A stretch of DNA of 32,000 bases from Candidatus Heimdallarchaeota archaeon. GTDB taxonomy: Archaea; Asgardarchaeota; Heimdallarchaeia; Heimdallarchaeales; Heimdallarchaeaceae. A program made the position numbers and the translations under genes. The notes under the pieces were generated by a model. The model was not told where the DNA came from, ran no database searches, and worked only from the letters and a program-made list of their open reading frames with translations. The stretch's first letter is position 1. Each line of letters opens with the position of its first letter. Shown here in pieces: positions 3,550 through 31,975 of the stretch. Location: the NCBI GenBank assembly GCA_030668875.1, contig DAOVER010000016.1, positions 34,098 to 66,097 on the forward strand. The letters run 5' to 3'.

Positions 3550-4404
3550 ATGAATAATAAAAATGTCATTGTTACTGGAGCTAATGCAGGAATTGGGAAA
3601 GAAACTGCCTTTAGGTTAGCTGAAATGGGAGCTCATGTTATACTAGTCTGTAGAAACGAGAGAAAGGGTATCAAAGTTCTGGAAGAGATAAAAGAGAAAA
3701 CAAGTAATGAAAATCTAGATTTGATGATCTGCGATTTTGCTTCTTTGAAGTCAATTAATGATTTTGTGAAGAGTTTTAAGAAGAAATACAAGCAGCTTGA
3801 TGTTCTAATCAATAACCATGGAGCTTTCTCAATAAGAAAGGCATTAACAGAAGATGGTGTTGAAACAACTTTTGCTGTTAATCATATTGGATATTTCAGC
3901 TTAACTTTACAACTACTAGATTTACTCAAAGCAAGTTCATACTCCAGAATAGTTAATGTGGCTTCAAGCTCAAATTATAGTGTGAAATCATTAAACATTA
4001 ATGATTATAATTGGGAGAAAAGAAGATATAAGATGATGGATGCTTATGCAGAATCAAAGATATAAAACATTATGTTCACTTTTCTGTTATCTGAAAAATT
4101 GAAGGGAACGAGAGTAACTGCAAACTGTCTTCATCCAGGTTATGTAAAAACTAATGTTGGACTGAACCATTTTCTGCTTAGGTTAATTGCACCATTAGTT
4201 AAAGTGGGAGCTATATCTACTGAAGAAGGAGCTAAAACTTCGTTATACTTGGCAACATCAGAAGAGGTTGAAGGAGTAACAGGAGTATATTATCACAGAA
4301 TGAAACTAAGAGAACCAAATATACTAGCACTAGATAAGAAAGCTCAACAAGAGTTATGGGACATGAGTTTGAAACTTACGGAACTTTCCTCAAATTTAAT
4401 TTGA
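3550..4404 (+). pseudogene. Short-chain dehydrogenase/reductase (retinol dehydrogenase-like classical SDR), copy 1, interrupted by an in-frame TAA
   Basis: TGANAGIG, NNHG and YAESK motifs. ORFs 3550-4065 and 4072-4404 are in the same frame, and TAA at 4063-4065 aligns with TAC (Tyr) of the intact paralog (ESKLYNIM vs ESKI*NIM). Confidence 0.88.
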
Positions 4405-5803: not shown

Positions 5804-6004
5804 CTCCTCTTCCTTCTTTGCTTTTATTTTATTATTTCTATAGCTAATCCAGTGAATTTCGTCCCCTAGTAAATCTGATATGATTTTTGAGGATTTGACT
5901 CCTTTGGAGAGATTCTGCATTTTAACTAGAACCCATTCGAATGAGTCTTTCATCTTGATTTGTATAAATAATCTCACCGCTAACTCATAGAATAGTAATA
6001 TGTA
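5795..6004 (-). pseudogene. 3'-terminal remnant of the HGSNAT/DUF1624-like gene that is intact at 9503-10921
   Basis: Translates YILLFYELAVRLFIQIKMKDSFEW...SSKIISDLLGDEIHWISY, collinear with the end of the 472-aa protein; similarity stops at about 6006 (vs 9714). Confidence 0.85.
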
Positions 6005-7254: not shown

Positions 7255-8109
7255 ATGAAAGACAAAATTATCCTCGTTACTGGAGCAAATGCAGGAATAG
7301 GGAAAGAAACTGCTCTCAAGTTAGCTGAAATGGGAACTCAAGTTATATTAGTCTGCAGAAATGAGAAAAAGGGGATCAGTGCTCTTGAGGAGATAAGAGA
7401 GAAAACCAGTAATGATAATCTTGATTTAATGATTTGTGATTTTGCTTCTTTGAATTCAATTAATGATTTTGTGAAAAGTTTTAAGAAGAAATACAAACAA
7501 CTTGATGTTTTAATTAATAACCATGGAGCTGTCTCAATAAGAAAGGCATTAACTGAAGATGGAGTTGAAACAACTTTTGCTGTTAATCATCTTGGTTATT
7601 TCAGTTTGACTTTACAACTTCTGGATTTATTGAAAACTAGCTCATATTCCAGAATTGTTAATGTAGCTTCAAGCTCAAATTACAGAGTTAAGGAATTGAA
7701 CATCACTGATTATAATTGGGATAAGAGAAAATACAAAATGATGGATGCTTATGGTGAATCAAAACTATACAATATTATGTTTACCTTTTTACTTTCTGAA
7801 AAACTGAAAGATACAAACGTTACAGCTAATTGCCTCCATCCCGGTTATGTTAAAACTAATATTGGTTTGAATCACTTCTTGTTAAGAATGCTTCGCCCAC
7901 TTGTAAAGGTGGGAGCAGTTTCCCTAGAAGAAGGTGCACAAACAACCTTACATTTAGCTACATCATCAGAGATGGAAGGAGTTACTGGAGTATATTATCA
8001 CAGAATGAAACTAAGAGAACCAAATAAATTAGCTTTAGATCAGAAAGCTCAGCAAAAATTGTGGGATTTAAGTTTAGAATTAACTGGTTTAACTAAAGAT
8101 TTAGTGTGA
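7255..8109 (+). CDS. Short-chain dehydrogenase/reductase (retinol dehydrogenase-like SDR), intact copy 2
   Basis: TGANAGIG Rossmann motif, NNHG, VNVASSS, catalytic YGESK, LHPGYVKT. Confidence 0.93.
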   Translation: MKDKIILVTGANAGIGKETALKLAEMGTQVILVCRNEKKGISALEEIREKTSNDNLDLMICDFASLNSINDFVKSFKKKYKQLDVLINNHGAVSIRKALTEDGVETTFAVNHLGYFSLTLQLLDLLKTSSYSRIVNVASSSNYRVKELNITDYNWDKRKYKMMDAYGESKLYNIMFTFLLSEKLKDTNVTANCLHPGYVKTNIGLNHFLLRMLRPLVKVGAVSLEEGAQTTLHLATSSEMEGVTGVYYHRMKLREPNKLALDQKAQQKLWDLSLELTGLTKDLV

Positions 8110-14059: not shown

Positions 14060-15532
14060 CTAGAAACCTAAAGCTATAAGACCGATTGAATAGAGTACAC
14101 CCAACACTCCACAAGCTAATGTTAAAGGTAGCATCTTTTGTACGTATTTGAGAAAAGATATAGGAAAATCTTCCCTTCGAAGTATCTCTAGTGACATTAG
14201 AATAGTAATTGATCCAAGAGGTGTCAATGCACCACCAATATTCCCAGAAAGAACAAAACCAATCCACAAACCTACTCCTGTTGCCACACCTAATCCTAAA
14301 GCTTGGTAGATATAAGAGAAAATAAGTGCTGCTGAAAAACTATTCATAAATCCTGCTATTAATAATCCTACGGCACCAATTATTATTGCTACCAAAATTA
14401 ACCCTCCTATTGTTGGTTCCCCACTCCTTAAGTAAACATCTGCAATGGAAGATGGAAGGACGAGAATTGGATTTTTCTCTAAAATCCCTCCTAAGATGGT
14501 GTTCAGCGGAACTAGGGCACCTGCAGCTGTTAATAAACCCATAAGAATAAAAAGAGCGATAGCGAAAATAATCATCTCCCATTCGACACCTTCTCGAAGA
14601 TAACGTTTCAAATCTGTCTTGAAAAGAAAAAGACCGAAAAATACAGCAATTAGAGCTGTAATAGCTACATCTAGAGGATTACCTGGAATGCTTGTAAGTA
14701 TAAATCCTATAAAAAGAAATCCAAGAAGAATTAATGATTTCCAAATGTTTTTTCTATCAGTAATCCCTGACCAAGGATTAATTCTTCCAATCTGCTCTCC
14801 TTTCTCATCTGTGACTTTAATTTGTAGTTGCTTCTTATAAATAAGGAAGAAAAATGCTGTAGCAAGAGCAAAGAAAAGAATTGCAATAGGGAGCATATAT
14901 GCTGTAAATGTGATGAAGTTAATATTTGCTTCTGGATACAAGTTGAAGAAAATGATATTAGGTATCGAAGAAACAGGAGTGGGTAAACCTCCAATTATGG
15001 TGTTGATTCCAACGAATAGCACGTAAGGTTCTGGGTTAATTTCGAGCTGTTTACATGTAACAACTGTTAAAGACCCTAGAAGAATAATAGCACTTAAATT
15101 ATCAAAAAACATTGAAACAAAAAATGTTAGTCCACCTAAAGCTATTAGTAGTTTTTTTGGATCACCTTTAGTCAATTTAACAATGTATAGCGATACAAAG
15201 TCAAAGAAACCTGCACCTTTGGTAATAGCAACTATTATACCTATAGAAAAGATGATTAGTATAGCTTCTATATTCACTGTTTTTGCTAAGGCTTCTAGAT
15301 AATGGACATTCTCAGATATTTCTTCATATCCTAAGTTTTTTTCAAAACCTTCCTTCCAGTTCATAAGTACTAGATACAATGTTGAAACTGCTAATGCACC
15401 AGCAGCGGTGACTTTTGTAGAATCAATTCCCTCTTTTGTTAGTAAAATAATTGTAATTAGAACGATGATTACAATAAGTATTGTTCCAATCCACTGGTAA
15501 TTTTCTCCTAACAGATTTATGGGGTTTGACAA
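14060..15532 (-). CDS. ArsB/NhaD (ion transporter superfamily, SLC13/P-protein-like) permease
   Basis: About 12 TM; NIEAILIIFSIGIIV, AGFFDFVS, SMFFDNLSAII, GGLPTPVSSIPNII, GNIGGALTPLGSIT. Confidence 0.87.
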   Translation of the reverse strand: MSNPINLLGENYQWIGTILIVIIVLITIILLTKEGIDSTKVTAAGALAVSTLYLVLMNWKEGFEKNLGYEEISENVHYLEALAKTVNIEAILIIFSIGIIVAITKGAGFFDFVSLYIVKLTKGDPKKLLIALGGLTFFVSMFFDNLSAIILLGSLTVVTCKQLEINPEPYVLFVGINTIIGGLPTPVSSIPNIIFFNLYPEANINFITFTAYMLPIAILFFALATAFFFLIYKKQLQIKVTDEKGEQIGRINPWSGITDRKNIWKSLILLGFLFIGFILTSIPGNPLDVAITALIAVFFGLFLFKTDLKRYLREGVEWEMIIFAIALFILMGLLTAAGALVPLNTILGGILEKNPILVLPSSIADVYLRSGEPTIGGLILVAIIIGAVGLLIAGFMNSFSAALIFSYIYQALGLGVATGVGLWIGFVLSGNIGGALTPLGSITILMSLEILRREDFPISFLKYVQKMLPLTLACGVLGVLYSIGLIALGF

Positions 15533-15980: not shown

Positions 15981-16793
15981 TTAATTCCTAACATGCTTTC
16001 TAATGAGTAAAACAGAAGGTACAACGAGTATCATTAATAAAAAGAACATTGAGAATTGGTTTATATTTAATTCTGATATTATGGGTACGGGGGATTCTGC
16101 TAAAGGATAGGGATCAGCAAACTTTCCACCATCAATGGAGTAATTCCCAGTTCCAGAATAATCATTCCAAAAATTACCTTCATTTGTATTGACATCATAC
16201 CAAACAGAATAATTTCCGGCGTCATAAGCCTGAGGTATACCTAGTCCTAGAGCATTCGAAATGAAAGAATTGTGGTGAAATATATTATATTCGTTTACTA
16301 GAGGATAAAGATAGACTCCCCATTCAACATTCTCTTGTATGAGATTATAAGTAAAATTACAATGATTGGTATACGTTAGAACTATACCCATTACACTACC
16401 CATGAGAGTATTATTAGAAATAGTGTTGTTAAAGCAATATTGTATATACAAGGCATAATTTTCATTATCGTAACATTTATTGAGAGAAATATTCGAGTTA
16501 CTAACAGCCATTAAGTTTATGTCTTTATTGGTTTGATTGTAACAAACATTTCCTTTGATCTCTACTCCACCAGAATTTATTACCCTTATTCCTATTTCTT
16601 GGTTATAACAGGTATTATCTTCAACTATTGCTCCATCTATCTCTTCTAGATGCATTCCAACTGCGTTTTCAGAGCAAGTATTTTCTAGTAACAAACAATC
16701 ATACGTATCAAATAGTTCTATATCATTGTTGTTCCATTTATAAGTATTGTTAGAAAATGTACTATAATCAACATGAAGTTTAATCCTAATGCT
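15981..16793 (-). pseudogene. NosD/right-handed beta-helix surface protein, 5'-truncated
   Basis: Parallel beta-helix repeats (NNTLMG, YNLIQEN, HHNSFISN), NFWNDYSG...DPYPL, C-terminal TM plus basic tail. The frame extends upstream of TTG 16694 with more repeats (STFSNNTYKWNNNDIEL) to a TAA at 16794-16796 with no start or signal peptide. Confidence 0.7.
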
Positions 16794-19346: not shown

Positions 19347-20219
19347 TTAACTCATTTTGAATATAGATAACTCAATTGAAATCAATATGCATGCGATAAT
19401 GAAAGAACTAATCACGGCTGACCACTTGTGTTCCTTAAGTTTCGTATGTGAAATTCTATCCAGAAATGTAAGCACCTTGTTATAAGTAAGTATTCGAACG
19501 ATCAAGAACAATAGTTGAAATACAGTCCCAATTGAAACAATAATCACATATTCAGGTATCGTACTTATGTAGAAAGATGATGAAACGATTAGAATTAGCA
19601 GAGTATATACAATATAAGTGAGATGAATTAACATAACTCTCCAAAAAGAATCTTTGGGAGATATATTTAGTAAAGGCCATACTAACCAGTTAAGTACAAA
19701 ACTAATTAAAATCAGTAGTGTAAAAATAACTCCTAGAATTACAGGATGTACACCCTTTTCCAAAAGACTTCCCCAATCATTAGGATTATCAAAAAAAGGT
19801 TTGAGGAATACACTGTAACCATTTAATCCTTCCATTAAATACGCAAAACTTGAGGTTAGTAAAAATGGGAGAAGATATTGATTTCTGAAAAACACAGAAT
19901 TAAAGTCATAATTGTCGTGGTAGCTATGCTGAAAATTGGTCCTGCTAAGGACACAAATACTTCATCTTGAGCTAGTAAAGGTGTTCCAGTATATGTCACC
20001 ATAAAAAGGGTTAACTTCAATCCTAACATCAGGATAACCCTTGACTATGAGCGCAAGAGCATGACCAGCTTCATGTAAGAGAATATAAAGGCTAATAGAG
20101 AAAAAAACGAACCAAAAAACAACAAGCTACTCTTCAAAGTATCTTTTTTTTGTGGCAAAATGATTCTTTAGAAAAATTTCTGTATTTGTCTCTGTTTCAC
20201 CTTTTTCTGTGTCATTCAT
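19347..20219 (-). pseudogene. M50-family (site-2-protease-like) membrane zinc metallopeptidase, broken by one nonsense codon and two frameshifts
   Basis: ATG 20219 frame: ...YFEE*(TAG)LVVFWFVFFSISLYILLHEAGHALAL...NPFYG. Second frame: TYTGTPLLAQDEVFVSLAGPIF. Third frame is track ORF 19347-19895 (NDW motif, TM helices). HExxH plus LAGP are M50 hallmarks. Confidence 0.8.
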
Positions 20220-20269
20220 ATAGATGCTTAAGTTAAAGCACTTATAAGATCTCTATTTTATAAACCAAA

Positions 20270-20590: not shown

Positions 20591-22339
20591 ATGTTCTTCA
20601 GTAGCAAAATGAAGATTGGTTTAAAATCTATAATGTTCATAATATTTATTATTTCAATTCTATTTTCTTCTATAGTTTACTCGTCATTATATTCTGTGGA
20701 ACATAAACATGATAGTATACTAGCTCAAGTGTCATTAAAAGATTCCTTGATACTTGAAAATCATGATCCAATTATCATTAATAGTGATTCAAATTTAGAT
20801 GCTTCAGGATTTCCTGGGAATGGAAATTATGCTGATCCTTACATTATAGAAAATTTTCACATAGTTACAGATGATTATTATTCCATCTCAATTTCAAGCA
20901 CATCAAAATATATTACTATTAGAAGCTGTTATACTGAATCAAAAAATTCAGGAATAAAAATTGATGATACAGTGAGTTTAAACACAGTATTGATTGAAAA
21001 TAATGAATGTAGAAATAGTGTCTATGGAATTAAGATTCGATCTTCCTCTTCAATTATTCAAAATACATGTATTAATAATACCTATGGTATTTCAATTAAA
21101 ACTTCACCTAATTCAAAGGTTCATAATAATGAATGTTTAGAGAATAAAGTAATGGGAATAACAATTTCAGGTTCAACAAATTCTGAAGTAAAGAGCAATA
21201 TTTGTTCAAATAATAAAAGAGAAGATGGAATTCATATTGACGATTCTCCTAATACAAGAATAGAAGACAATATTTGTGAGAATAATGGCTATAATGGGAT
21301 TTGGCTTCGATTTTCTCACTCATCGATTATTTCCTACAATGAATTAACAAATAACGGGTTAACAATCTACGAAGATAATGTGGAGGATTATTTGTCTCAC
21401 ACCTTTGAAGGCAATAGCGTTAACAATAAAACTCTAGGATTTTTTGAATCCCAAAAGGATATCATACTAGATGAACCAATATATGGCCAAATATTCTTAA
21501 TAGATTGTGAAAATGTCATCGTGGAAAATCAAGAGATTTATGATGCTAGTATAGGAATTAAGGTTCTATATTCCAAGTTTGTAACGATTCGAAATAATAT
21601 CTGCAATAAAAATTCTTGGTATGCAGGAATATATATTGATCTCTCTATCGGGTGCAAAGTCATTGATAATGAGTGTTTGTACAATGAAATGACCGGCATA
21701 CGAATCGCATCTTCATTAGATACAACAATAGAAAATAATCTTGTTGTCTATAATAGGATTGGAATTTCTATTGCTTATTCCTTTTTTGCAACAATTATAG
21801 ATAATCAAATACTAAATAATTCTTTTTCGGGATTAAGCGCATATGAAATTAATTCTTCTTATATTTGGAATAATACCTGTTTCAGGAATGACGCAGGAAT
21901 AGCTATAGCTGCAACTTCAGATTGTGAAATTGTAGAGAATTTATTCTTAAACAACACATTACATGGTCTAAACTTAAGATACGAGACTTATAACAATACA
22001 GTACATCACAATGCGTTTGTTGATAACAATATCAATGAATATTCTCAAGCTAAAGATGACGGTGAAGGTAACTTATGGTATGAAGTGAGTTCTGAGGAAG
22101 GAAATTACTGGTCAAATATTGGACAAAATTATACTTATATGATAGCTGGGAAAGCAAATTCCACAGATCCTTATCCATTATATGAATCACCAATATCAAT
22201 TGAACTTCCAATACTACCTATTCCCCCAGTTATAGATACTGAAGAGGTAATTTTTCAATTCTATCCTATTTACGTAATAGGCTTATTGTTTGTGATCTAT
22301 ATATTCAGGAAAAGAAGAAAAAAATGCTGCATTGACTGA
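20591..22339 (+). CDS. NosD/parallel beta-helix repeat surface protein with signal peptide and C-terminal TM anchor
   Basis: HDPIIINSDSN...GNGNYADPYIIENF lead-in, many NNxC/IxxN repeats, GNYWSN...DPYPL, TM plus RKRRKK. Confidence 0.85.
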   Translation: MFFSSKMKIGLKSIMFIIFIISILFSSIVYSSLYSVEHKHDSILAQVSLKDSLILENHDPIIINSDSNLDASGFPGNGNYADPYIIENFHIVTDDYYSISISSTSKYITIRSCYTESKNSGIKIDDTVSLNTVLIENNECRNSVYGIKIRSSSSIIQNTCINNTYGISIKTSPNSKVHNNECLENKVMGITISGSTNSEVKSNICSNNKREDGIHIDDSPNTRIEDNICENNGYNGIWLRFSHSSIISYNELTNNGLTIYEDNVEDYLSHTFEGNSVNNKTLGFFESQKDIILDEPIYGQIFLIDCENVIVENQEIYDASIGIKVLYSKFVTIRNNICNKNSWYAGIYIDLSIGCKVIDNECLYNEMTGIRIASSLDTTIENNLVVYNRIGISIAYSFFATIIDNQILNNSFSGLSAYEINSSYIWNNTCFRNDAGIAIAATSDCEIVENLFLNNTLHGLNLRYETYNNTVHHNAFVDNNINEYSQAKDDGEGNLWYEVSSEEGNYWSNIGQNYTYMIAGKANSTDPYPLYESPISIELPILPIPPVIDTEEVIFQFYPIYVIGLLFVIYIFRKRRKKCCID

Positions 22340-22541: not shown

Positions 22542-23498
22542 TTGTTAAAAGCAGAAAATGTGTCTAAGACCTATCCTATGAATGGTGTAAGAGCTTTAGA
22601 CAGTTTTTCTATCGATATTAAACCTGGAGAGATTATGGGGCTATTAGGGCCTAATGGTGCAGGTAAATCAACTTTTGTAAGAATTGCTGTTGGAGTTCTT
22701 GATAGAGATTCTGGTTCATTGTCAGTTTGCGGATGGGATTCTGATTCAGAGAGAAAGAAGATATCAAATTTAGTTTCATGGATTCCTCAAGAGGGAACTT
22801 CTAAGATGATTCTAAATAGAACTGGTCGAGAGAATATAATCTATTATTCTTGGATAAGAGGTATATCTAGAAAAGAAACAGAAAGAAGAATTGATGAGAT
22901 TCTTGAAAAATTAAACATTGAAAAAAAGATATTAAACAAAACCTACCGAATCATGAGTGGAGGACAAAAACAAATAACAAATATTATCAATGGTTTGATA
23001 ATGAATGCAAAATTATTATTTTGTGATGAGATATCAGTAAGTATTGATCCGATTATTACTAAGTCAATTTATGATTATCTCAAAGAATACACTTCTAATG
23101 GTCGTTCTGTTCTTCTTACATCACAAAATATATCAGAAGTGGAAAATCTTTCAGATAGAATAGCAATAATACAAACTGGAAAATTAGTGGCACTTGATAA
23201 ACCACGAGAAATTTCTAAAAAAATACTTAAATATGAAATCATCGACTTAAGTTTTGAAAATAGCGTTATAAAAGGTAAGGATTTTTCTAGTTTCAATTTA
23301 GAATTAGAACAACAAGACTATTTTCGATCAAAAGAGCTAAGTAATAATATTCTTCATATTAGATCCGATAACGCTAATAAATTGCTCAATTCTATCCTTG
23401 TTTTGCTAGAAAAATATTCCCTAAATCCTTCAATAGAATCTGGTAAAGCGAATCTTAGTGTAGCTCTTCAAATGCTGAAAAAGGAGGAGAAAAATTGA
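22542..23498 (+). CDS. ABC-2/DrrA-type exporter ATP-binding protein
   Basis: Walker A GPNGAGKST, signature MSGGQKQ, Walker B LLFCDEI, switch TSQN (Gln in place of His); SD GAGGT; TTG start. Confidence 0.92.
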   Translation: MLKAENVSKTYPMNGVRALDSFSIDIKPGEIMGLLGPNGAGKSTFVRIAVGVLDRDSGSLSVCGWDSDSERKKISNLVSWIPQEGTSKMILNRTGRENIIYYSWIRGISRKETERRIDEILEKLNIEKKILNKTYRIMSGGQKQITNIINGLIMNAKLLFCDEISVSIDPIITKSIYDYLKEYTSNGRSVLLTSQNISEVENLSDRIAIIQTGKLVALDKPREISKKILKYEIIDLSFENSVIKGKDFSSFNLELEQQDYFRSKELSNNILHIRSDNANKLLNSILVLLEKYSLNPSIESGKANLSVALQMLKKEEKN

Positions 23499-24337
23499 GG
23501 ACTTTCTATGCGAATTTCTGGAGAGAAATGAAATACAACCTTGGTCGAAGAGGTGTATGGATGGGAAGACTAGTAAATGTTACTGTCTCCATAATTACAG
23601 CATTCGCAATGGGGATTATTTATTCTTTTAGTGCTGAAGCTCAAACAACTGTAGGAATAGCAAATGTTGGCTTGTTTCTCTTAACTGGTTTTTTCTTACA
23701 GTATTTAGTTCTTTCAAGTGTTACAATAGCTCCTAATACTTTTTGGGGTGATATAAGAAGTGGATCTTTCGAATTCATCTTTCACTATGAATTTAGTATC
23801 TCTGAATATATTTTTGGAATTTACTTTGCTCAGTTTATTATAGACTTCGTTATTTCTTTGCCTTTTCTTATTGCAATTATTATCGTAGCAGCAGGACAAT
23901 CAACTCCAGCCATTCTCATCATCTCGTTTATTGGGTTCCTTATTTTTTCGTTCCTGTGTTTATTTTCTATTACAATGTTATACTCTTCTCTTTATGTTCT
24001 AAGTAAACAATTTATGGGTTATCATGGAGCTGTTACTTATATCGCTTATTTCATCTGTGGTGTCTATTTCCCTATTTTAGGATATCTTTCTCTCTTTGGA
24101 ACAAAAGCAGGATGGGCGATAATTGGTGTAATTTCTATTCTCCCATATACGCAAGTATTTGACATCGCTAGATACATTATTTTCGGTCAAAATTATGTTC
24201 TTGCTTATCCTACTCTATGGCTAGCTTTTCTAATCATGATTTCTACCTCAGTTATTTTCTATGTCTTATCACTAATCATATTCAGGAAAGGTTTCAAAAA
24301 TCTGAGAAAGGAAGGTTTCGCAGCTTACCGTTACTAA
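23495..24337 (+). CDS. ABC-2 type exporter permease
   Basis: About 6 TM, DIRSGSFEF motif, ICGVYFPI, SILPYTQVFDIARY; 4-nt overlap with the ATPase. Confidence 0.88.
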   Translation: MRTFYANFWREMKYNLGRRGVWMGRLVNVTVSIITAFAMGIIYSFSAEAQTTVGIANVGLFLLTGFFLQYLVLSSVTIAPNTFWGDIRSGSFEFIFHYEFSISEYIFGIYFAQFIIDFVISLPFLIAIIIVAAGQSTPAILIISFIGFLIFSFLCLFSITMLYSSLYVLSKQFMGYHGAVTYIAYFICGVYFPILGYLSLFGTKAGWAIIGVISILPYTQVFDIARYIIFGQNYVLAYPTLWLAFLIMISTSVIFYVLSLIIFRKGFKNLRKEGFAAYRY

Positions 24338-24408: not shown

Positions 24409-25509
24409 ATGAATAAGGAAGAACAACCAATAACTCCTACATTACCTTACGTTTTTCAAACCAAAGTTACTCAACAAGGCATTATAACAATCCCCTACAC
24501 TTTAAAATTAGATTTAGATAAGCATTATTTGTTCAATTTCCAACCTCTAAAAAGTGAAATCATATATTCCCAGGTTAAACAGATAAAACATTCAGGACAA
24601 AGACAATATGTTTCTTGTCGAATTAAATCTCCTTTCTTGCAAAAGGGAGATGAAGTAAAGATTACCATAATCAAGGAATTTAAAGCTTCATCAGAGCTTA
24701 CATTTGATGATGATGAAGAGTATTCTCTCTTGTTTAACCAATCTGTTCGATGTTTATTTCTGTACTCTTTTCAAGAGAAAGATGAAATCTTGACTGCAGA
24801 GGAAAGCAAAGACTTTCTATGTGAGTATCCAAATTTCACTCAACAGGAGTTTATCAAAAACTCCCTTGATTTGCTTAGCAAGAAAAACATTTTATTTGAA
24901 AAAGAAGAAGGAGAATTCTTTGATATATTACGTTTTCAAAATTATGCTGTAATTAGGTTTGTTGGAACGAAAAGATTATTGAGTTTTGATATCCTTCAGC
25001 AAAAACCCTCAGAAGAGGCAAAAATTGCCTATGAAACACATATTCCATTTGTCTTCCTTGTTCTAACAAAGATTGATTACCTTCAATTTTTACTCTCTCA
25101 ACATATTAGAACTAGATTCAAACTCTTTCTAGATAAATTTCAAAGTGTATCATCATATCTACCTTATGTGATTAAGGAGTTTTCTTCACTTCTACAGAGT
25201 GAAATATTTGAGATAATGACCAAGGCTGATGATAGTATAAGAAAATTTAACAGTCTTGATGATGTGAGATTCTGGTTCTTTATACCTGCTGAATATCATG
25301 ATCTAATCAAAAAAATCCAGATGGATTTTTACTCAGGAAAGAAATTTGTAATAATAAACGAATTGATAGAATCAATTAAAACTAAAGATGGAAATCTTGA
25401 AGCAAAGCAACTCGTAGTTAATGCAATAGAATGGTTGTATAGGCACCAAGTGATAAATGTAAGAGAGATGGATGGAGAGAAAATAGTGGAGATGTATAAG
25501 ATTGAATAA
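24409..25509 (+). CDS. Hypothetical protein: N-terminal AbrB/swapped-hairpin-like domain plus probable winged-helix domains
   Basis: FQTKVTQQGIITIPYTLK and LQKGDEVKITI match the AbrB pattern; helix-helix-hairpin segments SLDLLSKKNILFEKE and AIEWLYRHQVINVRE. ATG 24409 preferred because the track start 24217 lies inside the permease. Confidence 0.55.
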   Translation: MNKEEQPITPTLPYVFQTKVTQQGIITIPYTLKLDLDKHYLFNFQPLKSEIIYSQVKQIKHSGQRQYVSCRIKSPFLQKGDEVKITIIKEFKASSELTFDDDEEYSLLFNQSVRCLFLYSFQEKDEILTAEESKDFLCEYPNFTQQEFIKNSLDLLSKKNILFEKEEGEFFDILRFQNYAVIRFVGTKRLLSFDILQQKPSEEAKIAYETHIPFVFLVLTKIDYLQFLLSQHIRTRFKLFLDKFQSVSSYLPYVIKEFSSLLQSEIFEIMTKADDSIRKFNSLDDVRFWFFIPAEYHDLIKKIQMDFYSGKKFVIINELIESIKTKDGNLEAKQLVVNAIEWLYRHQVINVREMDGEKIVEMYKIE

Positions 25510-26308
25510 ACAATATAAAAAATTAAATTCTCATGTTATTAGCTTCTATTCATATAGAGGTGGAACAGGAAAATCAACCGTCGCGTCGAACCTTGCTACA
25601 GTCTCTGCAAAAAAACACAAAACAATTCTCGTAGATTTAGATCTCTATTCTCCTCAACTAACATACATCTTTGAGAAAACAAGCAAGAATTACATCAATG
25701 ATTATCTGCACTCCTCGCTCTTCACATCTAAACATGCTAGAAATAGAATTGAAAGCTTAGATGAGGTGATTTGTGAAAGCTCGTTTGAAAACCTTGATCT
25801 TATATTAGCAAACCCTAAGATGTCTCTCACTGATAACACAATTTTGCATGATGAAGTAATTACAAAAAAAGTTTTTCCTTGCTTCCAACATATGATAGAA
25901 TTACTCAAAACCCAATATGAAGTAATAATCCTAGATTGCCCTGGAGAATTGAATTACTATACACTTAATGGAATAGCTGTAGCAGATAGAGCGGTAGCAG
26001 TAAGTATACCCACCATAGCTAATGTAAAGGGAATGATAGAATTATTGAAAATTTTTAGTTCTGCACTTCAAGGTAAAAAAACTGATATCATTCTGATGAT
26101 GATAACTCCAAGACCTTCAAAAAAGAAAATAGAGAAATTAGTAGAATGGAAACAAGAACTCGAAAAATTTGAAGTGGAAAATTATCTTTGTTTTGATTAT
26201 TCAGAAAACATTGCTTATAGACATCAATTTGAAGATGACTTCTTTTATCTCCCAGAAGAGGAGGAGTATCAGAAATTGGAAGAATACCTGACTGCAATTC
26301 TGAAGTGA
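25502..26308 (+). CDS. MinD/ParA family ATPase
   Basis: Deviant Walker A variant SYRGGTGKST, LVDLDLYSP, IILDCPG, ADRAVAV; overlaps both neighbours. Confidence 0.88.
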   Translation: MNKQYKKLNSHVISFYSYRGGTGKSTVASNLATVSAKKHKTILVDLDLYSPQLTYIFEKTSKNYINDYLHSSLFTSKHARNRIESLDEVICESSFENLDLILANPKMSLTDNTILHDEVITKKVFPCFQHMIELLKTQYEVIILDCPGELNYYTLNGIAVADRAVAVSIPTIANVKGMIELLKIFSSALQGKKTDIILMMITPRPSKKKIEKLVEWKQELEKFEVENYLCFDYSENIAYRHQFEDDFFYLPEEEEYQKLEEYLTAILK

Positions 26309-27627
26309 CTAACATGGAACTCAAAACTCTGCTTTCGGTAAAGAAAAAGGATAAATGGATACATTATAATCTGATAAACCAAACAATGGTAAAAACTTCT
26401 CTTTCTCCAACAGAGTTAGATAGATCTCCTTCAGATATCAAAGAAGAGCTGTTGTATGGTACAGATAAAGAAATGCTAATAGAATCTCACAAGCTATATT
26501 ATCAAAAAATAAAGAAGGAAATGATGAAGAAAAGAGAGTTGAATTCTCCTTTTCTATCAAGAAGTGAAGTTAATCTAACTCTATGGTATGATTGTAACTT
26601 TGATTGTCCATATTGTTACCAACAAGAAGAATATTATGCTGGAGCAAAAGAAAGCGATAAAATCAATATAGAGAAGACCTTAGAATTCTTTAGAAATAAA
26701 TCAAAAAATGATGAATTTCCTCCAAAAACTGTTGTTTTCATAGGAGGTGAACCTTTACTAAAAGGTAAGAGAAATAGAGATACTATAATAACACTAATGG
26801 GATATCTCAATGAACACTTTCCTGGAATTGAAATACACGTCATCTCAAATGGTTATCTTTTAGGTGAGTATGCTGAAACCCTTTCTAAATTCAAGGATTT
26901 GAATTTCGTATTGACAATTACTCTGGGTTCTACAAGAAAAAACCACAAGTATGAAAGAATTCTCAAAACCAATAATTCAGTAGATACTTTTGAGCAAATC
27001 TTCGTAGGTATGAAGGAATTCAGAAAAAAAATTCCTAAGGGTTGGATTAATATTAGAATGAATTTTGCAAAGGATTACAGAGAAGTAGATGATACAAAGG
27101 AATTGATGTATCTGATTAAAAAAGAAATACCAGATGTAAGATTTGAACTCTCTCCAGTAGTTTCATTTTCGAATCATCAAGAAATTGGCTTAGGGTTTTT
27201 CAAATTGCTTAAGGATTTAATGTCAAATGAGGTTTTTTCTAAGTCCTTCGTAATGAAACTAAATGACAATCTATACTTCTTACTACGCAATTCAATTCCA
27301 CAACTAGAAAATAAGGAAATTTCATCAAAACCAAAAATATGCAATGCAGTTTCTTTTACAACAAACTATGATTTGTTCTCAGACTTCCAAATTCAACCTT
27401 GTGAGGATTTTAGATATTATAAGAGAATAGATGTGGATGATTTGAAAATATCAGATCTCTTCTTAGAATCTCTTGATAAGAGAGTAGAGCAATGTATAGA
27501 TTGCCCTTTTTTTGTAGGTTGTATTTCAAATCCATGTAAAATAATAAAAAGAAAAACTATAGCGAAAAAAGTATGCTATGAAAAAGAATTATTACCACTC
27601 TTTCAAATAATTGAAGAATTTTATTGA
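26305..27627 (+). CDS. Radical SAM/SPASM-domain enzyme, putative peptide maturase
   Basis: CNFDCPYC (CxxxCxxC), FIGGEPLL, ISNG; seven C-terminal Cys (KIC..QPC..CIDCPFFVGCISNPC..KVC) in SPASM spacing; about 85-aa N-terminal extension resembling an RRE. Confidence 0.88.
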   Translation: MTNMELKTLLSVKKKDKWIHYNLINQTMVKTSLSPTELDRSPSDIKEELLYGTDKEMLIESHKLYYQKIKKEMMKKRELNSPFLSRSEVNLTLWYDCNFDCPYCYQQEEYYAGAKESDKINIEKTLEFFRNKSKNDEFPPKTVVFIGGEPLLKGKRNRDTIITLMGYLNEHFPGIEIHVISNGYLLGEYAETLSKFKDLNFVLTITLGSTRKNHKYERILKTNNSVDTFEQIFVGMKEFRKKIPKGWINIRMNFAKDYREVDDTKELMYLIKKEIPDVRFELSPVVSFSNHQEIGLGFFKLLKDLMSNEVFSKSFVMKLNDNLYFLLRNSIPQLENKEISSKPKICNAVSFTTNYDLFSDFQIQPCEDFRYYKRIDVDDLKISDLFLESLDKRVEQCIDCPFFVGCISNPCKIIKRKTIAKKVCYEKELLPLFQIIEEFY

Positions 27628-27682
27628 ACTATAAAAGGGAATATATTTAAAAGAGCGAGTGTCATTAATGTAACAAGGTGCT

Positions 27683-27871
27683 ATGATGGGAAGAAAAGAT
27701 AAGAAAACAGAAGAAAACACAGCATTTGAAGTGCTTTTACGAAATACCAGTGGTGTAAACCCTGGTATTGAAACAGTTTATGATCCTCCAGGTGATCTGC
27801 CAGGAAATTGTAACCAATCTACAGCAAATCTTTCTGTTCGATCCTCAGTCTGTGATATTTTACTGATGTAA
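27683..27871 (+). CDS. 62-aa peptide, candidate RiPP precursor
   Basis: Strong SD AGGTG (27676-27680); 55 nt after the rSAM gene; charged N-terminal leader-like part and a Pro/Gly/Asn/Ser-rich C-terminal part with Cys43 and Cys57. Confidence 0.65.
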   Translation: MMGRKDKKTEENTAFEVLLRNTSGVNPGIETVYDPPGDLPGNCNQSTANLSVRSSVCDILLM

Positions 27872-27896
27872 TAAGGTGGTACTATGAGGAGAATTG

Positions 27897-29585
27897 GTGT
27901 TTAAAATACTATTCTCTTTCATTTACTTGAAGAAAAATCATCCTTTAAGGGAGAGTGTACTAGAATCTAGTAAACTTTTTTGTAATTATTCAGCTTCAGA
28001 TTCTGATTTGATAGAATCAGCAAGAAAGTTACTAAAAATTTCAAAAAACCATCAGCTAAAGGACGAAGAATTGTTTACAATAAAATCTACAGTAGATTGT
28101 ATTGAAGTTTTTCTAAGGGATTATGACTTTAAGAGATTTGATGAAATTTGTGCAAAAGCAAAGACTGGAGGATATCTTGAAAGTTATGTTGATTTATTAC
28201 TCTTAAAGGGTTTCATTCTATGTTCTTCCAGTATGTCTGGAATAAATCGTGCTTTTAGAATAAGAGAAAAAGAGAAAATTTTTACTTCATTGAATGAAAT
28301 TGGTGTGGAAGAGAACATCTATCTAGACTTAATATATGGGAAGTATCTCTTCATCAAGGGAGATGAGAAACAAGCTGCAATACTTTATGAAAAACTAAAA
28401 AACAAAATTGATCAGGATGATTGTGCTGCTAAAGTTATTCTCTTGAATCTTCTCTTCTGTATATACGAGCGAGATCCTACCAAACAGCTTGCTATTATAC
28501 AAGAAGGTTTGAATGGAACTTGCTTCTATTGGAATTTCGTTATTCAATATATTGACTTTTTAACACAAAGAGGAAGATATGTTGAACTAATAAACGAAGG
28601 TTCTATTTTTTTGCATAAACTAAATGAAAACAATGAAGAAAATAGAATTCCTAATGAACTTAATATTTTGGACCATATGATAAAAGCATCCTTTAAATTG
28701 AATGAGCAAGATAAATTGCATAATTATTGTCATCAATTTAGGAAATCTCTAGACACACTTCCCGAGGATGATCATGGTATGAAAAAAAATTACGCGTTTC
28801 TTCAATTCACACATGAGGTTTTATATCAAGTACTTTTTGAAGAGGAATTACTAATTGATTTGAGTGAAAAAACTATCCTCAATTATAGCACAAATCATTA
28901 TCTGAAAATGTTGAGGTCATTTCTTATCCTGAACCCATTAATAAGTAGGTTGATACAAGATAATGAATTTGATCAAGCTTTTACTTATATAAACAATATC
29001 GAAAGAGGAAAAGGTTATTCTAGCTCTACTGATGATTTATTAACTTTCATTAAAAATTTCTTTCTTTCACTTCTTATTGATAAATCACTAAAATGGAAGA
29101 AGTACAACAGTAAAAACTATGAAGGGGATCAGACTGAAGTAGCGTTAACCTATTTAGAAGAAGCTGTTGCATATCTGGGTGAACTTGATTATTCATTCAA
29201 AATAGCATCTATTCTTCAAGAAATTATCTTGAAATCTAGATTAGGTAGATTAGACGAAGTAAAAGAAACAGTTTTAGATGAAATACTGCTAACTGAAGGT
29301 TATGATCGTATACTTTCATTGATGGTATCACTGCTATACTATTCGGGTAAAGAGGAGATAGATAAATATCGGCAAATCAAAGAGATATTACTCTACGAAC
29401 TTGACAAATATAGAAACTTGAATTCTTATACTACATGGAAAAAACATCTAAGTGATATCTTTTCATTCTTAGATGTCAAAGACAAAGTTCTCTCTACAAA
29501 GAAAACATCATTTTTAGATATAGAACAAATCAAATCCTATACATCTTTCTTACAAAATCAGCTTAACAAACAACTGATTCAGTAA
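27897..29585 (+). CDS. Alpha-helical repeat (TPR-like) protein
   Basis: About 560 aa of amphipathic helices with TPR-like segments (YGKYLFIKGDEKQAAILYEKL; ALTYLEEA); no catalytic motif recognised; start uncertain (TTG 27894, GTG 27897, or out-of-frame ATG 27884). Confidence 0.6.
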   Translation: MFKILFSFIYLKKNHPLRESVLESSKLFCNYSASDSDLIESARKLLKISKNHQLKDEELFTIKSTVDCIEVFLRDYDFKRFDEICAKAKTGGYLESYVDLLLLKGFILCSSSMSGINRAFRIREKEKIFTSLNEIGVEENIYLDLIYGKYLFIKGDEKQAAILYEKLKNKIDQDDCAAKVILLNLLFCIYERDPTKQLAIIQEGLNGTCFYWNFVIQYIDFLTQRGRYVELINEGSIFLHKLNENNEENRIPNELNILDHMIKASFKLNEQDKLHNYCHQFRKSLDTLPEDDHGMKKNYAFLQFTHEVLYQVLFEEELLIDLSEKTILNYSTNHYLKMLRSFLILNPLISRLIQDNEFDQAFTYINNIERGKGYSSSTDDLLTFIKNFFLSLLIDKSLKWKKYNSKNYEGDQTEVALTYLEEAVAYLGELDYSFKIASILQEIILKSRLGRLDEVKETVLDEILLTEGYDRILSLMVSLLYYSGKEEIDKYRQIKEILLYELDKYRNLNSYTTWKKHLSDIFSFLDVKDKVLSTKKTSFLDIEQIKSYTSFLQNQLNKQLIQ

Positions 29586-29833: not shown

Positions 29834-31975
29834 GTGAAAAAAATGAAAAACGCGAAAAAAACAATTGTCCTCGTAACGTTTTTTATTACAATTTTTTTAG
29901 CAAGTAATATTTCTAATGTTATGAGTTTTAGTTTTGAACCAGAACCCCCTCCAGATGATCCTCCTCCTACCCCCCCACCCCCCGCAGATACAACAAACCC
30001 ATCTATAACAATCACTTCACCTGGAAATGGAGCTATTTTATATGAAACAACGACTATAAAAGCTACAGCTACAGATAATGTTGGAATTCTTCAAGTTACG
30101 TTTAGCATGGATGGCAACCAGCTAGGTTATGATACATCATCACCTTATGAAGTTACTTTTAATGCGATAAACTATGACGAGGGATATCATACAATTACTG
30201 CATTAGCTATTGATACAAGCTATAATACTAAATCTAGTAGTATTACAGTACAAATCAAGAGACCATTTGCACTAGAAGTAGAGAGAAATGACTTCACCTA
30301 CACAGACGATTACTTTAAACAATTGTGGTTATTAGATTTATGCAATTGGGATACAGTAAATTACAACTATCATGCTAGAAGTTGTGATGATGGTATTGTA
30401 GAGATAAGTGAAGTTTCTGGTAAAGCTGGATCTTCAGCATATGTTTCTGGTGCTCTCGATCTGAGTAGTTGGACTGGAATAGGTGATTTGAATTTAGAAA
30501 TAAAGGTTCGAGTCCAAAGTAGCTATTGTGGATCTTCCTCTGTTACTCAGCTTCGCTTAGGAATAGTTACGTGGGGCGAAAGTCCAGTAACTAAATGGTC
30601 CTATTATGAAAAATTTACTTACACTAAAGATACAGGCTGGATTGTAAAACAAATAACTATCCCTGAAGAAAATCTAATCTCATATGGAGGTTATTACAGA
30701 TTCTACTGGGGATTCTATGATAGTTGGTCTCATGATTGGAATCAAAAAGTGAGTATAGACTATCTAAAGGTGACTGGTGATGCTTATCCTGAGGCTACAT
30801 TGATTCGTGCTCAAGAAGCTGTGACAACAAAACCTCAAGTGAATGCATTTATGATAGAACCTGAATTTGATCATGATAGAGTAGATATTGGTTATAGCAC
30901 CAAAGTTTCTGGAATTGATACTCTTGGATTTGGATATGTAGATGAACCACTAATTGAATCAGCTATTCAGATTGTACTTGATCCCGATGAAGACAAAAAT
31001 GCTGCTCACTATCGTTACAATTTAGTTGATTTTGTGATGATTACAATACAAATTGAAAATGTCATATCCGGAAATCTATATGAACCTCGATTAGAGGGAG
31101 TATGGACTAATGAGGTAAACGAAGTTGAAGGAGATATGGCAGAGTTGGATACATTTTGGGACGTGGTAGGTCTTATTGGAACATATGTAGCAGCTGCTGC
31201 GGGCATTATATGTTTAATTCCTGGAGGGCAAATTGCGGCTCCTGTTGCTGCCGTTGGAGGTATTGTTTCAGGACTAGCCGCTTTGGGTGGTGCTATCACC
31301 GATTATGCAACGAAGGAATATGAGACGTATACTCTGACCACAGTTTATGATCCTACTGCCAAAAAGACTTATGTAAAAATTGATTTCAATGAACCTAAAC
31401 TTGGTTCTACAGATTTAAAACTTAAACTTGCAGTTAGACCAATTTTTGATTTCATAAATAACAGAAATACCTATTACAGAGTTAAAATTGATTATGATGT
31501 AGGGCTTAAACATGTCCAACATAGAATTAACAAAGAAACAGACTTTGCTCCAATTTCCTATTCTGAATGTTTTGATTATATTACCTATGATACTACACAA
31601 GACAATGTAAGGATTGTTGATAAAAATAGTTGTACCTTTTTAGATGGTACGCTAATGGATTTTTATTTCAATGCCCCAGTTAGTTTGTCAGGCGATCCAG
31701 GTGATTATGTTCTTGAAACTGTTAACGGTCCTCAATGGTATCTAGTTGTAGGTTCATCTGGAAACTCAGTATATTTAGATGCACCAGATCAATTTACATA
31801 CTCAATTTTGTTTGTAGATCATCTTTTCCAATTTGAAAAAATAGAAATGAGATACTGGCAACCGACTGTACTTCAATTGAATCCGATTAGTTATGCCTCA
31901 AATCAAATAAACAGAATTTTAGAAATTAATGTTCTGTTCTATCAATTTAGAATAGAATACAATCAGATAACTTAA
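29834..31975 (+). CDS. Secreted protein: signal peptide, Pro-rich linker, bacterial Ig-like (Big) domain, beta-rich domains, Gly/Ala-rich hydrophobic hairpin
   Basis: PEPPPDDPPPTPPPPA; DTTNPSITITSPGNG...ATATDNVGILQVTF..DG...YDEGYHTITALAID is a typical Big domain; DVVGLIGTYVAAAAGIICLIPGGQIAAPVAAVGGIVSGLAALGGAIT; no C-terminal anchor. Confidence 0.72.
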   Translation: MKKMKNAKKTIVLVTFFITIFLASNISNVMSFSFEPEPPPDDPPPTPPPPADTTNPSITITSPGNGAILYETTTIKATATDNVGILQVTFSMDGNQLGYDTSSPYEVTFNAINYDEGYHTITALAIDTSYNTKSSSITVQIKRPFALEVERNDFTYTDDYFKQLWLLDLCNWDTVNYNYHARSCDDGIVEISEVSGKAGSSAYVSGALDLSSWTGIGDLNLEIKVRVQSSYCGSSSVTQLRLGIVTWGESPVTKWSYYEKFTYTKDTGWIVKQITIPEENLISYGGYYRFYWGFYDSWSHDWNQKVSIDYLKVTGDAYPEATLIRAQEAVTTKPQVNAFMIEPEFDHDRVDIGYSTKVSGIDTLGFGYVDEPLIESAIQIVLDPDEDKNAAHYRYNLVDFVMITIQIENVISGNLYEPRLEGVWTNEVNEVEGDMAELDTFWDVVGLIGTYVAAAAGIICLIPGGQIAAPVAAVGGIVSGLAALGGAITDYATKEYETYTLTTVYDPTAKKTYVKIDFNEPKLGSTDLKLKLAVRPIFDFINNRNTYYRVKIDYDVGLKHVQHRINKETDFAPISYSECFDYITYDTTQDNVRIVDKNSCTFLDGTLMDFYFNAPVSLSGDPGDYVLETVNGPQWYLVVGSSGNSVYLDAPDQFTYSILFVDHLFQFEKIEMRYWQPTVLQLNPISYASNQINRILEINVLFYQFRIEYNQIT

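Follow-up and report, generated by a model that had tools for sequence, protein, structure and literature searches.

A candidate RiPP-type precursor peptide beside a radical SAM/SPASM enzyme in a marine-sediment Heimdallarchaeota genus

Immediately downstream of a radical SAM (rSAM) gene, in a 32,000-nucleotide stretch of a Heimdallarchaeota genome (the window), lies a short open reading frame that an earlier note, made from the sequence alone, had singled out as a precursor-like peptide tied to that enzyme. This raises two questions: is so small a frame a gene at all and, if it is, does it encode the substrate of the enzyme beside it? Asgard archaea are the closest prokaryotic relatives of eukaryotes. 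Our literature searches turned up no characterised RiPP, and no description of an rSAM RiPP system, from this group; they yielded only BGC surveys and a report from Thermococcales, to which we return below. The locus would present a compact and testable enzyme-substrate pair of 440 aa and 61 aa.

A short conserved gene downstream of the enzyme

The frame has two adjacent in-frame ATG codons, at 27683 and 27686. Translation of 27683-27871 on the plus strand is letter for letter the peptide quoted in the earlier note, with Tyr33, Cys43 and Cys57, and with NPG at residues 26-28, PPG at 35-37 and LPG at 39-41, all where the note had placed them (these residue numbers follow the 62-residue count from the first ATG). 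The start that it gave, 27676, needs correction, because that position lies inside the AAGGTG element. Its preference for the second ATG was well founded: the peptide genes of two close orthologous loci, the JGI metagenome contigs L020 and L021, have a single ATG (M-G-R-K-D), which aligns with the second ATG of the window and follows the same CAAGGTG. TATA-like runs also precede the peptide genes of G005 and G019, two Heimdallarchaeota MAGs of the same genus as the window genome, at a similar distance to the block in the window. A promoter of its own is plausible for the peptide gene, as judged from sequence in a genome whose GC content, like that of the window, is 32%. Rfam models run over 26000-29000 found nothing relevant. 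The features are collected in Table 1.

Table 1. Coordinates of the features discussed, in positions of the window
Feature	Coordinates	Strand	Basis
DrrA-like ABC ATPase of an ABC-2 type transporter	22542-23498	+	Pfam/NCBIfam
6-TM ABC-2 permease	23495-24337	+	Pfam/NCBIfam
366-aa protein with AbrB/SpoVT-like N-terminal motif G-I-I-T-I-P	24409-25509	+	Alignment of six orthologues
ParA/MinD-like ATPase	25502-26308	+	AAA_31/CbiA matches; invariant motif in 8/8 loci
Radical SAM/SPASM-type maturase with RRE-like N-terminal domain	26305-27627	+	Pfam Radical_SAM (7.8e-14), Cys motifs, folds
A/T-rich TATA-box-like block	27637-27655	+	Same sequence in window, L020 and L021; some 30-50 nt 5' of the start
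Shine-Dalgarno-like AAGGTG	27675-27680	+	5 nt before the second ATG; CAAGGTG conserved in L020 and L021
Candidate precursor-peptide gene, 61 aa plus stop	27686-27871	+	ORF/translation, alignment, dN/dS, cross-validated profiles
F-E-V-L-L-R-N, a motif of leader-recognition type (61-aa product, residues 14-20)	27725-27745	+	Pattern in 8/8 peptides
Core block C-x7-S-x-R-S-x-x-C	27809-27853	+	Cys codons TGT at 27809-27811 and 27851-27853
563-aa all-helical TPR/PPR-like solenoid	27894-29585	+	Model pLDDT 81, about 28 helices

Eight copies of the surrounding gene module were counted: those of the window, L020, L021, G019 and G005, of two more distant contigs, L028 and L029, and an incomplete copy, G000:C20. 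The window peptide and its syntenic counterparts in L020, L021, G019 and G005 (which has two) make up six alignable peptides, and the mini-ORFs of L028 and L029 bring the number compared to eight. The window DNA itself is present in marine-sediment metagenome runs.

Could the frame be an untranslated accident of the intergenic spacer? Among 20,000 random or shuffled sequences matched to the 266-nt gap in length and composition, 1.3-2.2% contained an ATG-to-stop ORF of at least 61 codons, so that a single locus is suggestive at most and the comparison across loci has to decide. Every locus that extends far enough has, on the same strand and within the module, an ORF of 50-67 codons. Seven loci pair the rSAM with such an ORF of 50-67 aa, and in L020, L021, G019, L028 and L029 it lies directly 3' of the rSAM gene. 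Profiles built from some of the peptides also recover the others. The profile of the window, L020 and L021 peptides found both peptides on the G005 contig (E 7e-7 and 6e-5), the G005-peptide profile found the window peptide (E 1e-4), and a five-peptide profile from which G019 was left out matched the G019 ORF marginally (E 0.04); the target of this cross-validation was all six-frame ORFs of a contig, and the syntenic ORF was the top match. Pairs of peptide genes have dN/dS values of 0.2-0.8, with synonymous sites near saturation. A conserved, alignable, same-strand frame that stays open with dN/dS below 1 is more than a chance frame, and the Shine-Dalgarno element and start codon are conserved as well; we regard a chance origin as scarcely credible.

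The peptides diverge faster than the enzymes. The rSAM orthologues of L020, L021, G019 and G005 are 85%, 79-81%, 47% and 39% identical to that of the window, respectively, whereas the L020 and L021 peptides are only 56% and 52% identical to the window peptide, a disparity that would be typical of RiPP precursors. Among 30 related genomes the peptide profile matched only those that bear the rSAM, and among 5.8 billion proteins it returned syntenic peptides only, a single-sequence query of the same set returning the window's own peptide alone. Neither Pfam nor NCBIfam has a match to the peptide, in keeping with the earlier statement that it resembles no known precursor family. Weak tblastn matches in G018, G004 and other genomes were rejected: they were not significant against the peptide profile (E 0.6-0.75), and the frame in G018 runs antisense inside a 286-aa ORF. 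The mini-ORFs of L028 and L029 are likewise not recovered by the six-peptide profile, their similarity not being significant, and on their sequences we treat them as positional analogues rather than proven homologues.

From these comparisons we conclude that the peptide is encoded by a genuine gene, one that is conserved and strictly linked to the rSAM family. Both the frame and its cysteines, whose loss from syntenic loci would have spoken against the original proposal, are kept there, save for the second Cys in G019, and the proposed tie to the adjacent enzyme is upheld by syntenic homologues beside rSAM orthologues and by co-occurrence with the rSAM alone.

The enzyme and its predicted contact with the peptide

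The probable true start of the 440-aa enzyme is the ATG at 26314 (M-E-L-K), as in its orthologues. It has the CX3CX2C motif (C97, C101 and C104) and, at the C-terminus, seven invariant cysteines with CX2CX5CX4C spacing, that is, the combination of CX3CX2C with a SPASM/twitch domain expected of sactipeptide and ranthipeptide enzymes. Pfam recognises Radical_SAM and Fer4_12 only. The enzyme reaches the cutoff of no named NCBIfam maturase family, SCIFF, PapB, CefB, Clo7bot, StsB and RumMC included: the CefB, Clo7bot and PapB models give 54.6 bits (cutoff 600), 54.3 bits (cutoff 600) and 52.6 bits (cutoff 340), FlmE/OhkG is also among the best at about 50 bits, and the SCIFF maturase model gives 39.6 bits against a cutoff of 425. 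Because these scores fall so far short of the thioether-maturase cutoffs, the chemistry cannot be transferred by homology; and as a member of no named maturase family the enzyme may carry a new cross-linking chemistry.

When 1.84 billion representative proteins were searched exhaustively with a profile, five came out below 1e-30; past these, scores drop sharply to generic SPASM maturases at 1e-24. The nearest outgroup proteins are unclassified neighbours of CefB, TIGR04463, PapB and Clo7bot. The enzyme occurs in three of 399 Asgard genomes, all of one genus, and in three of the 23 genomes searched in that genus. Contig scans of metagenomes and genomes with the rSAM profile added nothing further except L027, a distant partial rSAM; an additional rSAM protein, P0010, is 76% identical, its contig position not having been located. 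Billions of proteins yield some six clusters of the enzyme, which makes this a very rare family; its ecological reach would therefore be small even if its chemistry proved new.

The best sequence match of the enzyme in the PDB is CteB, the SCIFF thioether synthase (3.7e-9). Foldseek searches with the AlphaFold model, which is of moderate confidence (pLDDT 63), put SuiB at the top, with CteB, SkfB and TigE also among the top matches. When only the core plus SPASM region is aligned, ChlB (Z 14.6) and anSME (Z 13.9) come ahead of CteB. Over the whole length, the model aligns with TigE at Z 11.9 (352 residues, rmsd 6.2, covering residues 6-440) and with CteB at Z 10.2 (340 residues, rmsd 5.8), alignments that take in residues 5-90 of the enzyme. 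This N-terminal part is predicted to fold as beta3-alpha3, with strands at 9-14, 17-22 and 28-31 followed by three helices, at a local pLDDT of 40-77. The predicted fold is consistent with a putative RRE; we keep the assignment at that level because the N-terminus has no match to the Pfam PqqD/RRE models at E values up to 10.

The earlier note had proposed a co-fold of the peptide with rSAM residues 1-90 as a check. A co-fold of peptide and rSAM, run with the alignments of both, gave an ipSAE of 0.58, above all three controls (the best of which scored 0.00), but was graded as weak support only. The mark that it reached is attained by 58 of 80 solved complexes and by two of 110 mismatched pairs, and scores of 0.60 or lower among those reaching it belong to seven of the 80 solved complexes and to both of the passing mismatches. 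Agreement between the runs extends to at least 21% of contacts, with a partner pLDDT of 36 or more. The predicted complex slightly strengthens an expectation that was already high on the grounds of synteny.

Conserved features of the peptides and the possible product

The N-terminal part of the peptide has the features of a leader. All eight peptides, including the dissimilar ones of L028 and L029, have the pattern [FLI]-[EKD]-[VI]-x-[LIVAM]-x-[NT] there. The note had read the segment around FEVLL as a helix-prone leader; as a conserved, leader-like region it stands, but the helix is doubtful, since the motif is rich in beta-branched residues. To judge from these residues, it looks more like a segment that would pair as a strand with an RRE. 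The comparison of peptides does not allow a leader/core cleavage site to be identified.

The core is variable apart from its Cys, Ser and Arg positions, and the C-termini vary too. Cys43 is present in all six alignable peptides, and Cys57 is invariant, together with the surrounding S-x-R-S-x-x-C, in five of them, as is the C-x13-C spacing; the proposal that the two cysteines are core features is thus well borne out. Ser51, Arg53 and Ser54 are conserved to the same degree as the cysteines, and other positions kept are a Gly and an Asn-x-x-Ile, along with a spacer that is loosely Asp/Pro-rich (D-P-x-G-D-x-P). The exception is the G019 peptide, which has one Cys only and lacks the second together with the R-S-x-x-C block; no frameshifted continuation of its gene restores them. 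A two-Cys product is therefore not universal. The peptides of L028 and L029 have two cysteines each, the first in the context K-[ST]-x-x-C, which aligns with R-S-S-V-C around the second Cys of the window peptide. Position, a similar leader motif and two cysteines are all that they share with the other peptides.

Two further features to which the note had drawn attention did not survive the comparison. The triple xPG motif is not conserved, not even in the closest relatives, which are 56% identical, and the same is true of Tyr33, so that a cross-link at a conserved Tyr is unlikely.

Overall, these data suggest that 27686-27871 probably encodes the 61-residue precursor of an undescribed rSAM/SPASM RiPP-type system of a marine-sediment Heimdallarchaeota genus. 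The generic traits of RiPP precursors are there, namely a short ORF that co-occurs with an enzyme and a conserved leader region followed by a more variable core. So is the conserved donor Cys in the core that characterises sactipeptides and ranthipeptides. Because the cysteines are the sole core residues common to the whole set, and because the enzyme has Cys-thioether maturases as its nearest relatives, our best, though tentative, guess by analogy is that the product contains a Cys thioether cross-link, which we hold to be possible rather than probable.

The peptide might instead be a substrate of the enzyme that undergoes some other reaction, such as epimerisation, C-C or C-O cross-linking or an anSME-like oxidation of Cys, the two cysteines then serving as a disulfide or as ligands of a metal or cluster. 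SPASM enzymes catalyse many reactions, ChlB and anSME outdo CteB in the core-plus-SPASM match, the G019 peptide makes do with a single Cys, and the conservation of the Ser-Arg-Ser positions equals that of the cysteines. Against this, only the Cys within [KR]-[ST]-x-x-C is shared with the peptides of the distant loci; every one of the nearest named families has a Cys-containing peptide as its substrate; and no aromatic residue of the core is invariant among the alignable peptides, an argument against links of the cyclophane or streptide type. We consider such other chemistry somewhat unlikely, yet a serious alternative.

A working model for the proposed precursor can be outlined. The gene would be expressed from its own TATA-like element and Shine-Dalgarno sequence. 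The N-terminal 30 or so residues would act as the leader, with F-E-V-L-L-R-N docking on the RRE-like domain of the rSAM, as the weakly supported co-fold suggests. With the SAM cluster and the two auxiliary clusters of its SPASM domain, the enzyme would then take a hydrogen atom from the core block, and, by extension from its nearest relatives, one or both Cys thiols may be joined to a backbone or side-chain carbon in a thioether of the sacti or ranthi type. The ABC-2 transporter might export the product or confer immunity, and the TPR solenoid, the ParA-like ATPase and the AbrB-like protein are candidate accessory, scaffold or regulatory factors.

The set of an rSAM/SPASM enzyme, an RRE (putative here) and a small peptide recurs in PqqE/PqqA and MftC/MftA, and three copies of the module lack the transporter, so that the peptide could in principle give rise to a redox cofactor of the PQQ or mycofactocin kind rather than to a secreted or bioactive peptide. 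The core, however, varies greatly even among close relatives, unlike the strongly conserved precursors of cofactors; the module contains neither a dependent oxidoreductase nor a processing peptidase, and the peptides show no strict C-terminal residue pair of the kind known from those systems; the distribution within the genus is sporadic; and G005 has two diverged tandem copies. Taken together, these points make a cofactor precursor very improbable.

The gene module and its relation to known systems

The core module consists of five genes, co-oriented in the window, for the AbrB-like protein, the ParA-like ATPase, the rSAM, the peptide and the TPR solenoid. The first of these is always the first gene of the module; we call this 366-aa protein AbrB-like on the strength of its motif, and it matches no Pfam or ESM Atlas family. 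The ATPase has a deviant Walker A motif, S-Y-R-G-G-T-G-K-S-T, in which Arg replaces the signature Lys, and this is invariant in all eight copies. A role as an Fe-S carrier of the Mrp/NBP35 kind was considered for it and rejected, there being no CxxC. The solenoid is 541-563 aa long across the loci and always part of the module. Its fold matches are generic (TPR/PPR proteins, the MalT sensor domain, NprR), the ESM Atlas gave generic TPR matches only, and a LanC-like cyclase was rejected for want of any invariant Cys or His. The ABC-2 transporter is present in five of the eight copies and absent beside three distant modules. PADLOC found no defence system in the module, only generic matches to the ATPase and the rSAM core. 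The invariant co-occurrence of ParA-like, AbrB-like and TPR proteins suggests an unusual logic of maturation or regulation.

The constant presence of the TPR protein invites another interpretation, in which the peptide is a real small protein that the rSAM does not modify, acting instead as a ligand of the TPR or AbrB-like protein, an adaptor, a regulator or a signalling peptide like that of NprR/NprX. In G005 the TPR gene even stands between the rSAM and both peptide genes, and NprR and the MalT sensor domain are among the weak fold matches. Such matches are generic for helical repeats, however, and the peptide and the rSAM occur together in every complete locus, the predicted N-terminal domain of the enzyme is of the leader-binding type, and the co-fold with the enzyme scores above all controls, though weakly. 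A ligand or signal of this kind seems to us quite improbable, and we retain the reading of the peptide as an rSAM substrate.

The arrangement differs somewhat between loci. In G005 (L015, G005:C76, 12875-15108) the TPR gene directly follows the rSAM, and then come two diverged tandem precursor genes, at 14594-14797 and 14911-15108, each after its own TATA-like run. The second, paralogous module of the window genome, on the minus strand (G000:C20:1-2916, L019), holds genes for a 371-aa AbrB-like protein and the ParA-like ATPase and then an rSAM gene that runs into the contig end. L029 is its orthologue, at 87% identity. The peptide and TPR genes of this second module are not in the assembly. 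L029 itself has a different two-Cys mini-ORF at 5983/6004-6156, plus a TPR protein.

No leader peptidase is encoded in the conserved module. Farther upstream in the window, at 19350-20230 on the minus strand, are fragments resembling an M50/site-2 protease, L-L-H-E-A-G-H (HEAGH at about 20070) being followed in another frame by V-S-L-A-G-P; the pieces are broken by a stop and frame changes and have no Pfam match. A role for this pseudogene as the leader peptidase of the cluster is not supported, as tblastn finds no counterpart in the seven other loci, and it probably lies outside the peptide module. NosD/beta-helix surface-type proteins flank the region (20591-22339 and 15981-16694). The former, just upstream of the ABC genes, has an N-terminal signal-like and a C-terminal hydrophobic segment, and no NosD-like gene occupies this place in the related loci. 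On the other side, 3' of the TPR gene, 29834-31975 encodes a 713-aa secreted-type protein with a signal-like N-terminus, a Pro-rich stalk, Big_7 and an internal hydrophobic stretch at about residues 441-490; in L020 and L015, too, large ORFs lie 3' of the TPR or peptide genes, a comparison by position only. At 3550-4404 a short-chain dehydrogenase appears to be divided between a 171-aa ORF, which matches only the N-terminal part of adh_short, and an adjacent 110-aa ORF, and an intact 284-aa paralogue lies at 7255-8109; the split may be a frameshift or an assembly error.

How does the locus compare with characterised systems? SCIFF/CteB, PapA/PapB, CefA/CefB and Clo7bot all have, as here, a short precursor with conserved core cysteines beside an rSAM-SPASM maturase with an RRE, a putative one in the window enzyme. 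Their peptides are nonetheless different: SCIFF and ranthipeptide systems have six cysteines or C-x3-D/C-x4 repeats, the SCIFF signature being six cysteines in about 45 aa, whereas the window peptide has two in 61 aa (one in G019), spaced C-x13-C. The enzyme differs from sactipeptide and ranthipeptide maturases in its CX2CX5CX4C SPASM spacing and in scoring 50-55 bits against family cutoffs of 340-600. Unlike SCIFF and sactipeptide systems, the locus belongs to an Asgard host, and its module has no peptidase but does encode a TPR solenoid along with the ParA-like ATPase and the AbrB-like protein. SuiA/SuiB and TigB/TigE share the three-domain architecture of the enzyme, but SuiB makes a Lys-Trp C-C cross-link and TigE forms cyclopropylglycine on repeated motifs, and the alignable peptides have no conserved Trp/Lys pair and no Val repeat, nor the conserved aromatic in a repeated core motif that marks triceptides and streptides.

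Within the archaea, sactipeptide clusters of the subtilosin A/AlbA type have been reported in Thermococcales (bioRxiv 10.64898/2026.07.27.741052). For those clusters, as here, an archaeal rSAM-modified peptide with Cys-based cross-links is proposed, and an ABC partner accompanies it; they are, however, recognisable homologues of bacterial bacteriocins, whereas the peptide and enzyme described here have no recognisable bacterial counterpart. The most far-reaching interpretation would be a first RiPP family native to Asgard archaea, with a new type or topology of cross-link on the C-x7-S-x-R-S-x-x-C core and with the trio of R-for-K ParA, AbrB-wHTH and TPR proteins replacing the usual logic of peptidase and transporter; we think this unlikely. 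The locus resembles sactipeptide, ranthipeptide and SCIFF-type systems and belongs to no named family. The pairing of an rSAM/SPASM enzyme with a leader-core peptide is familiar in principle; novelty lies in the clade of the enzyme, in the family of the peptide, in the host lineage and in the accessory genes.
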